DNA of 64,000 nt from Owenia fusiformis. Lineage: Eukaryota. The notes below the pieces were generated by a model. That model was given only the letters and a program-made list of their open reading frames with translations. It was not told the DNA's origin and did not search any database. Shown in pieces: positions 21,301-27,300 of this stretch; position 1 is the first letter of the stretch, and every line of letters begins with the position of its first letter. The stretch lies in contig CAIIXF020000001.1 in NCBI GenBank assembly GCA_903813345.2, positions 9,114,001 through 9,178,000 on the forward strand. The letters run 5' to 3'. The position numbers were made by a program, and so were the translations under genes.

Positions 21301-24300
21301 GAAACATTGATGAGGCGCAATAAGAAACATTGATGAGGCACAATGAGAAAAATTGATAAGCGCAATGAGAAATGTTGATAATGCGCAATGAGAAACATTG
21401 ATGAGGCGCAATAAGAAACATTGATGAGGCGCAATGTGAAAAATTGATGAGGCGCAATGAGAAACATTGATGAGGCACAATGAAAAACATTGATGAGGTG
21501 CAATGAGAAACATTAATGAGGCGCAATGAGAAACATTGATGAGGCGCGATGAGAAACATTGATGAGGCGCGATGAGAAACATTGATGAAGCGCGATGAGA
21601 AACATTGATGAGGCACAATGAGAAACATTGATGAGGCACAATGAGAAACATTGATGAGGCACAATGAGAAACATTGATGAGGCGCAATCAGAAACATTGA
21701 TGAGGTGCAATGAGAAACATTGATGAGGCGCGATGAGAAACATTGATGAGGCGCGATGAGAAACATTGATGAAGCGCGATGAGAAACATTGATGAGGCGC
21801 GATGAGAAACATTGATGAGGCGCGATGAGAAACATTGATGAGGCGCAATGAGAAACATGGTCAATGCATCACTGACATCAAACAGTATGTCTATAGCCTA
21901 ACTAGATAACAGCAACGCCAATGAGTAGCAAATCCTATCGAACAGCCATAACAATGGCTGGCATTTTTTTAAATGGCCACCTTTTTGTCAAGTTGTAATT
22001 AGATAGTGCCAAAAGTGTCATAAAACAGTGTGCCATGCTTATAAGTATTCACATATCAAACAATGAAATTGCTCCATTCCTTTTTAAGTTATAAAAAAAT
22101 TACTGTAGAATTGACACTAAAATGGCACCATGTTGCCATTTTCAAAATTGGCTTTAGAGCAAGACTTGTACTCATATGGGGCATATATGTATTACATATA
22201 AATGATATTGGGCCAACACTATTTGAGTTATTGTCCCAATGGACATATGGACCAGACAAACTGCTTCCCTATATCAAAAAATTAGAAACCCTGAACTTGT
22301 GAAGATTGGGGAATTGTGCTTTGCAAAGAAATCTTTAGACAAAATAGTCCTTCAAAAACACTGCAAAAACCTCCTTTCAGATAAAAATAATCATGATCAA
22401 AACCTCTTACTTAAACTGATATTAGATGGACAAGAATGGTTTGGAAGGTCAATTTGTCTATAGCTTTGTTTTGACTGAGAAATATAAAGAAAGAATTGAT
22501 CAATTTCCATGAAAATCTGTTTCTAAATTGGCTTAGGGAATGACCAGATCAGCTTGACCTTGGAGTTCTAACACAGGACATCAATTTCAAGTTCCAAATA
22601 TAGAGCTGTCAATCAAAATCTTGAACTGTGTGGAAGAGTAAAAGGTATTTTTAGTTTGATTGTGGATGATCTTTATTAAATTGAATTGTTCTCAGAAACA
22701 AAGACACTTTGTAACAATAATAAAAATTTAATTTGTAAGCATTTAGAACATGAATTTCGATAAATATATACAGGTCATAGTTACGTACAGGGTGGTAAAA
22801 AAAAATGGAAACCCTGTCGCCATTTTCCTCATATCTTTGTCATTTTAGGAAATTACTCCCTGATATTTAGCACATTTGTACATCATTCAATTTCCTACCG
22901 GCCTACCATATTCCATGACCATCATATTGATAGTCACAATTTTACAGCACTTTAAACAACATGCCCCATTGGCCAATATTGCACTTTTGGCAAACCTGCA
23001 CCTATCATCCAAAATGTCCCTACCTTACTTCAACCTGTGGTGATACACCAAAAAAGAGTGTATGAGAATAACCCCAGGACAATTGCAGACCTCAAAAAGC
23101 AGATCATCCATGTCATTCAGGCCATACCTGCTGAAAAATGTAGTAAGATCATTGACAACCTGTTCAGATTTGCCAATAGCGCGATGGTGGCCACACTGGG
23201 GCATCTTGTTTAAAGTGCTGTACCATTGTGACTATCAATCTGATGGTCATGAAATATCGTTAGCTGTTAGGAAATTGAATGTTGTACATGTGTGTCAAAT
23301 TTCAGGGAATAATTACCCAAAATGACGAAGATATGAGAAAAATGCAGGGTTTCCATTTTTTTGACCACCCTGTACTAGTAACACACACTGAAAAATACTA
23401 TTTTAAGCACAATAAAACAAATCAATAATTTTCTATGAATTGTAGATATGCAAGAAACAAAAAGATTAAGACAAAATATTCTATAGCTGGTAAAATAAGG
23501 ATCACACACTTTATTTGAACAATGAAGGATCACATACTTCATTTAATACTCAGTAGCTCTAAGTTGAGTCGTTGTTTTCTATTAAAGCAATATTTTATTG
23601 GAACTAAACGAAGGGATTAAACTTAAAATAAACGCAACCAAGATTTTAACATCTTGAAATCAATGTTTCATTAGAAAACTAAACAAAGAGATTAACCCAA
23701 AATAAACACAATCAAGATTAATAACTTTAATCCAAGTAAGGAGACAGGATTATCACCTTACTGGATTAACAGACAAAGTAGATGACATAATAAGCTGCTC
23801 AGGTTCATGCCAGATTTCTTCATTCCTATTGGTCCAAGGCAGCCATCATATCCTATTTAATAGCAGATGATGAGAAATATCAGCACTCATATCTGAGACC
23901 CGATACAACATGGACGTAGATGAAATGCAACCTTTTACTCCCAGCCAGAATCAACTGTATAACAAGATCATAAAACTTCAGCAGAAACAGAGAAAGTCTG
24001 AGCAACAAGTTAGATCTCTCATCTCCAAAGAAAAGTGTCTTATAGCAAGGCTAATGAAGGCAGAGAGTGAACAGAAACTACACAGCATGGCCAGTCTAGA
24101 GCTACAGCTTCTGTGTATTACAGAAACAAGATCCATGTTTGCTGAGTATTGGCAACAAGTTGAAGATCAGATTCGATCCCTCTGTAGTTCCGATCATCTG
24201 CTAATGCAACTGCTGCTAAGATGAACTTCTACCTCAAGAGATTATAACAAACGGTCCTTTTCAGGACCACATTCACTTACACAAGAGAAATTAACATTAT

Positions 24301-27300
24301 GAATCTATTTCTTAATATTTGCAAATGACTGAGTTTTTGTTGTTTGAAGTTTTATAAACTTGTAATATCATCTCCTTGAACAGATACTTCAACTAACAGG
24401 ATACATTCAATATCTAGTTATCACAGGCTCAAATAACTCTGCTATTTATGACATGATCGAGAACAAATACACTTTACTAGATTTAAGATTTTTTGTATAA
24501 ATTATCAATTTTTATTTATTTATTAGGATAAAATGCTTTTACAAGATCGACACTACTCAAATTAAGTGTGCATCCAGAGAGAATAAAATACATAATAGTT
24601 GCAGTAAAAAAACATCTCTCAACATTTTTAATTTGGTCCTGCCCCTATGTGCCTAAGTAAAGTGAATCACCAATAATGCATTGTAGCTCATGCATTGTAG
24701 CTTATGCATTGTAGCTTATCATTGAGGATAGCTGATAAATATTCACCTACAAGGGCAATGTCAGATGAAGAAATTAAATTATCAATAAATAGGTTTCTTT
24801 TATCTTGGATGTTGGGGGGCAAAGGAACAGGCGATGGGACATAGAGTTGTAAGAATTGGTGGGGCATAATTTACAAAAGCCATCACTTTTATTCCACCTT
24901 TTTTTCAGGTCTGATTCAAGGGTTTGTGAGTTCTTAATCTTTAAATAGCAGAAATAGTCAATTTGTCGAATGTGATATAGCACTGAAGCCCGATCTCGAA
25001 TGATGCATTAATTTTCTTAAAATATTATGATTCATGGTAAAAAATTATCAATGAAATAATGATCTACATTATTTGAACTACAAGTATGTTTAATAAAGCA
25101 TTAAAGGTTGAGTCAGTTGTTTTGAAATCAATATTTCATTGAAAAATGAGTCAGAAAAAAACAAAGGGATTACATCCAAAATAAACACAATCAAGATTAA
25201 CATCTTTAATCCCAGTAAGACGGGATTATGACATCACTAGATTAACAGACACATTGAGTAGGTGATAAAATGAGAAACCAAGACATTGAGTAGGTGATAT
25301 AATAAGCTGCTCATATTCATGTCAGATTCCTGCACTCTGATTGGTTCAAGGCAGCCAGCTTACTGTATATAAGAGCAAGTAATTTGAAATATCAGCACTT
25401 GTATCTGAGACCTGTAGCAACATGGACATAGAAGAAATGCAACCTTTTACTCCCAGCCAGAATCAACTGTATAACAAGATCATTATACTTCAGCAGAAAC
25501 AGAGAAAGTCTGAGCAACAAGTTAGATCCCTCATCTCCAAAGAAAAGTGTCTTATAGCCAGGCTAATGAAGGCAGAGTGTGAGCAGAAACTGCACAGCAT
25601 GGCCAGTCTAGAACTAAAGCTACTGTGTATTACAGAAACAAGATCCATGTTTGCTGAGTATTGGCAACAAGTTGAAGATGAGATTCAATCCCTCTGCAGT
25701 TCCGATCTTCTGCTAATGCAACTGCTGCCATGATGAACTTCTACCTCAACAGATAGTAATTAACGGTCCTTTTCAGGACCACCATCGGTTACAAAAGAGA
25801 AACTGATCTTGTGAAAATATCATCTCATTAAAGGAATATTCCTGGCCAGACCATTTCTCTCCTAATATGGTAGCTATAACCATATATATACTTTCCATAT
25901 TTAGCAAAACAGGGAAAAATGTTTTGATATGGTTAATATTGATCACTTGAAAATGTAGTGCCGAATTCCAGTAGGCTGCCATCTTTTAATATTACACTCA
26001 GGAAGTGATGTCATCAACTCTCAACTTTGCATATAACACTATAAGGAGCTATTAAGAATTACAAAACCAGCTGAATATTCTTTTTCAATTTTGTCTATGA
26101 TTTAATCCTTCTAAAAGTCTCTTCTTTTATTCTAAGCTGACAAGCTCTGAACATATTTTTGCGCATAAAGTAAGAATCACTCGTCTAGAAGTGATATTGT
26201 GCTATTTTCCTATACTGTTATATGCAAGGTCATGAAAGTTGAGGGTCGATGACATCACTTCCTGAGTAAAATTTTAAAAGATGGCAGCTTACTGGAAATG
26301 AGCACTACATTTTTAAATTATCAATATTGACTTTATTAAAACATTTGCCCATGTTTTGCTAAAAATGGAAAGTATATATATGATTATAGCTATCACATCA
26401 GGATAGAAAAGGTTTGGCTGGGAATGTTCCTCAACATTCTGATCTAAATTCTAAAAGGGTGGTGTTTCTTTTTGAAAGATTTGTGATCACTCACATTCCA
26501 AATATTCACTGTGTTATATCATGGGCTTTCAATTGGCCCATAGTCCCATGGTTATATATAATGAAGTGTCTCATTTTTTCCCTATGAATGCAATAGAAAG
26601 AGCCTATTGGGAGACCTGTTTATACATGATACCTGTAAGGCATCCTAAATGTGCTGCAAAAATACAGTAAGCCCAGCTTACTACAGTAATTCATCCTTTT
26701 TTACAACAAAAAATGTCCACCATCATATCTAATATGTAATATTAATACATGAACTTACCACAGGAGCTCCACAGGTCATCTTGACTAGTTTGTGACACTT
26801 CTTGTGTACCAGAAGTTTGCAGTCCACACATTTGAATCCCTGCCTTCCCAGTCCCCAGATTCTGTCAGAGCAGAATGCACAAAATGCTTTCTGAAAAACA
26901 TAAGTTTTATTTATCAAGCAGAAGTTAAATGTATTGGAGCACATTTGTGTCGAGATATTTGTTGTTTGACTAAAATATTTCAAACAGAAACAATTTCTTC
27001 AAAACTCAACCAATCTAAGCTAAACATGGCACTATTCAATGGCCTCAAATCGCCTTTCTTTACGCTAAACCCAACATTCACTAAATACAAACAATTTGGT
27101 ATAAGCATGAAGGTAGACATTTTGGAAACTTCTTTCAACTTTATTCATTATTTTGGTCTTATTTTGGTGGTCAATGAGAGAGTTGCGTGAGTAGGTCAAA
27201 TTATAATTATTCATGAATAAGAATAACCAATGCCTCAGAAACAGCAATGAGAGTATTTATAGCTGAAAGCATCAGGATTGCAAAGTATGCACATGTGCAT

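Follow-up and report, generated by a model that had tools for sequence, protein, structure and literature searches.

Two tandem non-histone open reading frames that end in a histone-type stem-loop and downstream element in an intron of Owenia fusiformis

Is the histone-type 3′ end, a stem-loop and, after it, a histone downstream element (HDE) rich in purines, the property of histone genes alone? According to the relevant passages of one report, human SLBP was found bound to no RNA besides histone mRNAs (PMC4604434), and the part of a second paper that deals with the point states that processing through the histone-type pathway appears to be confined to histone mRNAs (PMC5054213). A description of a natural non-histone mRNA with a histone stem-loop was not found in the open-access full-text literature, supplements aside. 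Here we analyse a 64,000-nucleotide (nt) stretch of the genome of the annelid Owenia fusiformis (assembly GCA_903813345.2, contig CAIIXF020000001.1, positions 9,114,001 to 9,178,000 of the forward strand), referred to below as the window, in whose own numbering positions are given. An initial annotation made from the letters of this DNA had pointed to two small open reading frames (ORFs) that encode no recognizable histone and are each followed by a histone stem-loop and an HDE, and this observation is confirmed. We consider it probable, with a rough probability of 60%, that the two are lineage-restricted protein-coding genes whose mRNA 3′ ends would be formed by SLBP and U7.

The ORFs belong to two tandem copies of one unit that occupy 23600-25900 of the plus strand at a spacing of 1512 nt. 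ORF A (23910-24224) has 104 codons plus stop and ORF B (25422-25733) has 103 codons plus stop; the coordinates originally given for two small intronless plus-strand ORFs therefore hold, as does the length of about 104 codons ascribed to each in the case of ORF A, while ORF B is one codon shorter. Both frames are open throughout and have no intron, the two proteins are identical at 94 of 102 residues (92%), and a tblastn comparison with the window brings up no copy of the ORF besides these two. A further version of the copy-B ORF, corresponding to 25458-25737, is present in the DNA sequencing run X1. It shows 8 differences over 280 nt, of which 3 are synonymous and 5 non-synonymous, keeps the frame with no stop, and has the copy-A state at four of the eight differing positions; it may represent either an allele or an additional paralogue.

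Each copy carries the same hairpin, GGTCCT-TTTC-AGGACC, with a 6-bp stem and a 4-nt loop, at 24253-24268 in copy A and 25765-25780 in copy B, both on the plus strand. Stop codon and stem are 28 nt apart in copy A and 31 nt apart in copy B, in line with the identical 16-nt hairpin that had been placed about 30 nt after each stop. The Rfam model RF00032 (Histone3), which has a gathering score of 34 bits, matches 24248-24292 with 34.6 bits (E = 2.9e-06) and 25760-25805 with 34.1 bits (E = 4.4e-06), and these are the sole gathering-level Rfam matches in the window. A permissive Rfam rescan of 22000-27000 added one sub-threshold match at chance level, and a generic stem-loop regular expression applied to both strands of the 64 kb returned no site beyond the two hairpins. 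The stem has two G-C pairs at its base and a U-A pair on top, closed by the U-rich loop TTTC, and the hairpin is recovered in both the minimum-free-energy and the centroid predicted folds. On the 5′ side it is flanked by CAAAC or UUAAC, so that AAC precedes both stems, and on the 3′ side by ACAUU in copy A and ACCAU in copy B. The HDE-like purine core AAGAGAAA follows at 24283-24290 and at 25795-25802 (plus strand), 14 nt past the stem in both copies, which agrees with the purine-rich AAGAGA element previously positioned 13-15 nt downstream. From stop codon to hairpin, neither copy contains AATAAA or ATTAAA. The window has no Rfam match to U7 small nuclear RNA (snRNA). Contigs from runs X3-X5 (Logan contigs), listed as possible RNA, also span intergenic stretches such as 23372-23878, 24323-24473 and 26492-26944, and these runs were taken as DNA; all four sequencing runs have A in place of C at 24282, beside the copy A HDE core, and G in place of A at 24288, within it.

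Alignment of the two copies segment by segment gives an uneven profile of conservation, with identity at 108/125 positions in the distal upstream region, 69/90 in the proximal promoter, 32/40 in the 5′ untranslated region (UTR), 290/306 in the coding sequence (CDS; 94.8%), 20/25 in the 3′ UTR, 21/21 in the hairpin with its flanks, 7/12 in the spacer between hairpin and HDE, and 8/8 in the HDE core. Over the first 96 aligned bases past the HDE only 47 are identical and the copies are unrelated; their likeness therefore stops at the point where a histone-type transcript would end. Taken together, the hairpin and HDE core are identical at 29 of 29 positions, while the other non-coding positions differ at 56/292, and the chance of such conservation is approximately 0.002 if the flank rate is assumed and 0.017 under the synonymous rate. 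Given the Rfam E-values and this 29/29 conservation between diverged copies, the 3′ elements exceed what chance would produce. The same profile bears on an alternative in which the pair is real and expressed with a histone-derived promoter and 3′ flank, while the hairpin is now a relic or a minor end and the mRNA is mostly polyadenylated further downstream, on the model of some histone genes. Such an origin would accommodate the borderline Rfam scores and could make use of an ATTAAA 22 nt past the copy B HDE (25827) and an AATAAA 290 nt past that of copy A (24582). However, these downstream signals differ between the copies, that of copy B lies at the edge of an insertion resembling a miniature inverted-repeat transposable element (MITE), the copies lose their likeness right past the HDE, and the two processing elements have stayed identical while the spacer that separates them has not. 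We regard predominant downstream polyadenylation as unlikely.

The promoter side has a comparably regular layout, and the CCAAT, TATA and initiator-like elements that had been noted upstream of each ORF are all located in both copies on the plus strand. An inverted CCAAT box (ATTGG) is kept at 23828-23832 and 25340-25344; it is followed by a TATA-like box at 23854-23863 in copy A and by the TATA box TATATAAG, read from the sequence, at 25366-25373 in copy B, and then by an initiator-like TCAGCA at 23880-23885 and 25392-25397. The latter lies 28 nt downstream of the TATA start in both copies, an equal spacing, inside the invariant block GAAATATCAGCACT, and would place putative transcription starts near 23882 and near 25394. 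The ATG of each ORF is the first past the putative start site and stands in the conserved context CAACATGGA. Further upstream, about 180-240 nt before the ATG of copy A, an element of about 50 nt at 23673-23730 aligns with 25153-25210 in copy B; it occurs once before copy B and twice before copy A, where an extra tandem copy specific to that unit (23602-23658) was recognized by local alignment to 23677-23719 and 25159-25209. All three are on the plus strand. The 44-nt core of this element is 93% identical between the copies, as against 77% for the proximal promoter, making it a candidate enhancer. It includes the H1-box heptamer AAACACA; with 27 occurrences in the window where 23.5 would be expected, this motif has no weight by itself.

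The coding sequences have diverged far less than their surroundings, with 16 mismatches over 306 positions compared with 56 over 292 in the non-coding flanks (81% identity; Fisher P = 1.3e-07). The 16 differences comprise 8 synonymous changes over 61.3 synonymous sites and 8 non-synonymous changes over 244.7 non-synonymous sites, corresponding to a synonymous divergence (dS) of 0.143, a non-synonymous divergence (dN) of 0.033 and a dN/dS of 0.23 between ORF A and ORF B. The synonymous excess reaches P = 0.0097 at a kappa of 1, that is with no transition bias, and P = 0.055 at a kappa of 4, and being built on 16 differences it is modest when taken alone. Since dS is close to the divergence of the flanks, the low divergence of the CDS points to constraint on the protein as opposed to simple gene conversion. 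A codon-usage score trained on 1892 codons of other exons in the window is positive in the annotated frame alone (+0.125 and +0.179 bits per codon in the two copies), with values from -0.147 to -0.493 bits per codon in the other five frames. These data suggest that the copies diverge as a functional protein-coding gene would.

What these ORFs would encode is a protein of about 12 kDa, with an isoelectric point of 7.7 for one copy and 5.4 for the other. Pfam reports no family at its cut-off, the top hit being HDOD with 14.5 bits against a required 22.9; PDB sequences give no match at E ≤ 10; a word-indexed protein search over 5.8 billion clusters offers no candidate relative; and the top score in the ESM Atlas, 0.75, falls under any useful level. 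An exhaustive HMMER search of 1.84 billion representatives produced a single match, P0001, a 1726-residue repeat protein in which the same 44 residues of the ORF match each repeat unit with at most 24 bits, and which was rejected as repeat inflation. Pattern searches of viral contigs (23 matches) and metagenome contigs (254 matches) led to no confirmed relative. The initial annotation had judged the proteins to be unlike core histones and H1, which Pfam, the PDB sequences and the exhaustive protein search support, and had proposed structure prediction as a check. AlphaFold2, run with no alignment, predicts one long helix spanning residues 11-103 of ORF A, with a predicted local distance difference test score of 89.9 for the best model and 53-82 for the other four. 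Thus by Pfam, PDB sequences and the predicted single helix the product has neither a histone fold nor a linker-histone domain. It is also not strongly basic, and the pair is not part of a histone cluster: the 64 kb contains no histone gene and no further RF00032 match.

The lack of a homologue in any protein, viral or metagenome search is what would be expected if the locus were a duplicated histone unit that survives as a silent or non-coding relic, its frame a chance or young de novo one and its hairpins at most SLBP decoys, and we estimate that a stop-to-stop frame of such length arises about once by chance in 64 kb at 34% G+C. Against this stand the retention of the frame in both copies, the contrast between a CDS at 94.8% identity and flanks at 81%, and a dN/dS of 0.23 with a dS near the flank divergence, a pattern that simple gene conversion of the CDS would not readily give. 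The codon-usage score is highest in the annotated frame and the ATG context is conserved at the first ATG past the putative start. Moreover the region retains no residual histone similarity, and another of its frames has 8 stops. A silent relic therefore appears to us improbable.

The pair lies antisense inside an intron of a gene on the minus strand that is identified as an atypical protein kinase C (aPKC) by its PB1-C1-kinase architecture, with a PB1 exon at 28299-28697 (Pfam PB1, 6.3e-12), a C1-domain exon at 26750-26956 (C1_1, 1.1e-14) and kinase exons at 18800-19099, 18116-18391 and 16350-16754 (Pkinase, 5.5e-06 to 9.6e-09). These exons bear out the aPKC intron first proposed as the location of the pair, which falls between the C1 exon and kinase exons that lie no higher than 19099. 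This intron also houses, at 19692-21858, a minisatellite with a 23-nt unit repeated 94.6 times (89% matching), which generates spurious long minus-strand frames. MITE-like self-complementary repeats are found at 22821-23344 and 25832-26431, and also at 27491-28141, with arms of 151 and 197 nt that are 85% complementary. Elsewhere in the window, a metabotropic glutamate receptor gene extends over 736-11618 of the plus strand; the 439-residue translation of one of its exons is 98% identical to an annotated O. fusiformis protein.

The initial annotation had also entertained a selfish or virus-derived cassette, and a mobile-element or viral unit equipped with its own histone-like 3′ end would fit the position of the pair between high-copy MITE-like hairpin repeats in the intron, one of which begins about 26 nt past the copy B HDE. 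Some of the non-histone hairpin sites that we recovered from metagenomes (L023, L052 and L088, which have a C-terminal peptide in common) likewise look like repeated elements. However, the flanking repeats at 22821-23344 and 25832-26431 are separate insertions, self-complementary units of their own with enormous contig depth in the DNA runs, and not terminal repeats of the pair; none of the viral pattern matches was confirmed; and the window contains two copies only. In the DNA run X1 the summed contig depth over the bins of the cassette is 21-631, compared with 56-140 for unique neighbours and 2,956-701,542 for repeat bins, a figure that is not a copy number and serves as a hint only. With no viral relative, no terminal repeats and two copies in the window, the cassette is not supported, and we hold it to be very improbable.

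We therefore return to a pair of lineage-restricted protein-coding genes with histone-type 3′ ends. Several observations weigh against it. Directly 5′ of the stem, C stands in place of the A of the Rfam consensus, from which the 3′ flank ACAUU of copy A also deviates, and the Rfam scores exceed the threshold by just 0.1-0.6 bits. In addition to the small number of differences behind the synonymous excess, the protein is an orphan whose lone match among 1.84 billion representatives is repeat-inflated. The word-indexed collection includes the annotated O. fusiformis protein of a neighbouring receptor exon and nothing resembling the ORF; with that exon present and the ORF absent, the ORF is apparently unannotated in this protein collection.

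On this reading the two units would be tandem paralogues of an intronless gene for an all-helical, non-basic protein of about 12 kDa. Each transcription unit would consist of the upstream element, the CCAAT and TATA boxes, a 5′ UTR of about 28 nt, about 104 codons and a 3′ UTR of about 45 nt, approximately 390 nt in total. From the elements and their geometry we infer transcription from the putative start sites, after which SLBP would bind the stem-loop on the pre-mRNA, U7 snRNA would base-pair with the AAGAGAAA core 14 nt downstream, and cleavage a few nt past the stem would leave an mRNA with no poly(A). Such an mRNA would presumably be made, translated and degraded alongside histone mRNAs, in S phase and during rapid cleavage cycles. 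As to the protein, our guess is a coiled-coil factor required in step with DNA replication or early cleavage.

Whether the particular hairpin found here is a genuine histone signal was addressed by looking for exact matches to the 21-nt hairpin string in metagenome contigs, 93 of which carry it at 113 sites in all. Eight sites with less than 150 nt upstream were left out, giving 105 assessable sites. An H3, H4, H2B, H2A or H1 ORF precedes the string at 71 of these (by tblastn, with histone ORFs from the same contigs) and an ORF of the Pfam Linker_histone family at 5 more, a total of 76/105 histone sites. As most sites stand behind histone ORFs, in other eukaryotes the string is a true 3′ end of histone genes. 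A purine run of at least 6 follows at 54 of the 76 histone sites, with a median start 11 nt after the string (interquartile range 9-12), while in the window the run starts 12 and 10 nt after it. The AAC...CAC flanks of the window hairpins also occur at the 76 histone sites. The window protein itself has no match below E 0.5 when compared by tblastn with the 93 hairpin loci.

At the 29 remaining sites the string is not preceded by a histone ORF, and at 10 of them an ORF of at least 88 residues ends no more than 36 nt before it, compared with 460 of 20000 random positions on the same contigs (P = 5.6e-10); the 10 include one identical pair, L085 and L090, and a possible off-frame H1, L044. These loci were picked through the hairpin string itself and are of environmental source. 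When 20 of the non-histone loci were scanned with Rfam, 15 Histone3 matches in 13 of them reached or exceeded the gathering score, with 38.8 bits for L042, 38.1 for L001, 37.5 for L061, 35.7 for L085/L090, 35.4 for L091, 35.1 for L063 and 35.0 for L037; L038, L023, L052, L050, L043 and L018 had no match at this level. Two of the loci encode homologous non-histone proteins, of 100 residues in L037 (170-469 of its contig, minus strand) and 116 residues in L038 (288-635, plus strand), with 65.6% identity over 96 codons, proportions of synonymous and non-synonymous differences of 0.70 (pS) and 0.215 (pN), and a dN/dS of 0.12. Judged by these ratios the family is under purifying selection. Its genes stop 14-18 nt before the hairpin, their 3′ UTRs align at the hairpin alone, and 4 additional unnamed relatives of 111-113 residues are present in the protein collection. 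L001 has a 146-residue ORF (1266-1703, plus strand) with a His-Me finger endonuclease domain (Pfam PF05551, 2.3e-11) and a histone stem-loop 26 nt after it (1731-1776), while the nine other metagenomic non-histone ORFs tested have no Pfam family. L042, L061, L063, L085=L090, L091 and L019=L065 contribute further ORFs of 88-236 residues that lie 20-111 nt before a stem-loop at the Rfam threshold and have no known relatives. Strong purine-rich downstream elements are present in L042 and L061; in L037, L038, L001, L063 and L091 the 35 nt that follow the string contain no purine run of 6 or more. The three loci with the common C-terminal peptide, L023, L052 and L088, show the hairpin followed by a GAAGGAG-type element, a layout which L066, L021 and L058 at least share. 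What these contigs share could be a gene, repeated or mobile, equipped with a 3′ end of the histone type.

The initial annotation had called this architecture almost exclusive to histone mRNAs. The literature agrees, while the metagenome survey suggests that non-histone users of the hairpin are less rare than the literature holds and that the window pair is no isolated case. More tentatively, and as a proposal that we would not back at even odds, histone-type 3′ ends with SLBP, U7 and no poly(A) could extend to scattered, hitherto undescribed small intronless non-histone genes, comprising the annelid pair and several unrelated families of environmental eukaryotes, as a wider replication-coupled regulon that transcriptomics and annotation based on poly(A) would systematically miss. 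Genes of this kind would escape standard annotation and poly(A)-selected RNA sequencing because they are short, have no known relatives and have no poly(A). If true, the occurrence of a conserved stem-loop and HDE on a natural non-histone gene would break the histone-only rule of SLBP, provide a clue to what else cells need in strict step with DNA synthesis, and show how new genes acquire a specialized RNA-processing signal.

Four known systems invite comparison with the window pair. In human cells U7 snRNA acts on non-histone RNAs, namely HERV1/LTR12 transcripts and long intergenic non-coding RNAs (10.1101/2023.08.25.554787), and here too a component of histone processing is used outside histone genes; as far as the pertinent part of that work goes, however, U7 represses non-coding or retroviral transcripts through HDE-like pairing, and no stem-loop protein-coding mRNA is involved. 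The metagenomic non-histone ORFs are closer in layout, with frames of 88-182 residues that end 14-36 nt before the identical hairpin in L037/L038, L001, L042, L061, L063, L085=L090 and L091, although by sequence none is a relative of the window protein and five have no purine run. Replication-dependent histone genes share with the pair a short unit that has no intron and carries CCAAT and TATA boxes, a hairpin of 6-bp stem and 4-nt loop that satisfies RF00032 and lies 28-31 nt past the stop in the window, and a purine core, here 14 nt past the stem; the 21-nt string of the window hairpin is itself found behind H1, H2A, H2B, H3 and H4 ORFs in metagenomes. They differ in that the window product has no histone fold or linker-histone domain and is not basic, and that the pair has no histone neighbours in 64 kb and sits within an intron of another gene. 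The departures of its hairpin flanks from the Rfam consensus aside, the unit resembles a replication-dependent histone gene in every sequence feature tested and fails the one defining test, that of a histone product. In reporter genes with a histone 3′ end, hairpin plus HDE direct histone-type processing behind a foreign ORF, and what those artificial constructs do by design, the window pair, with its own foreign ORF before hairpin and HDE, would do naturally.

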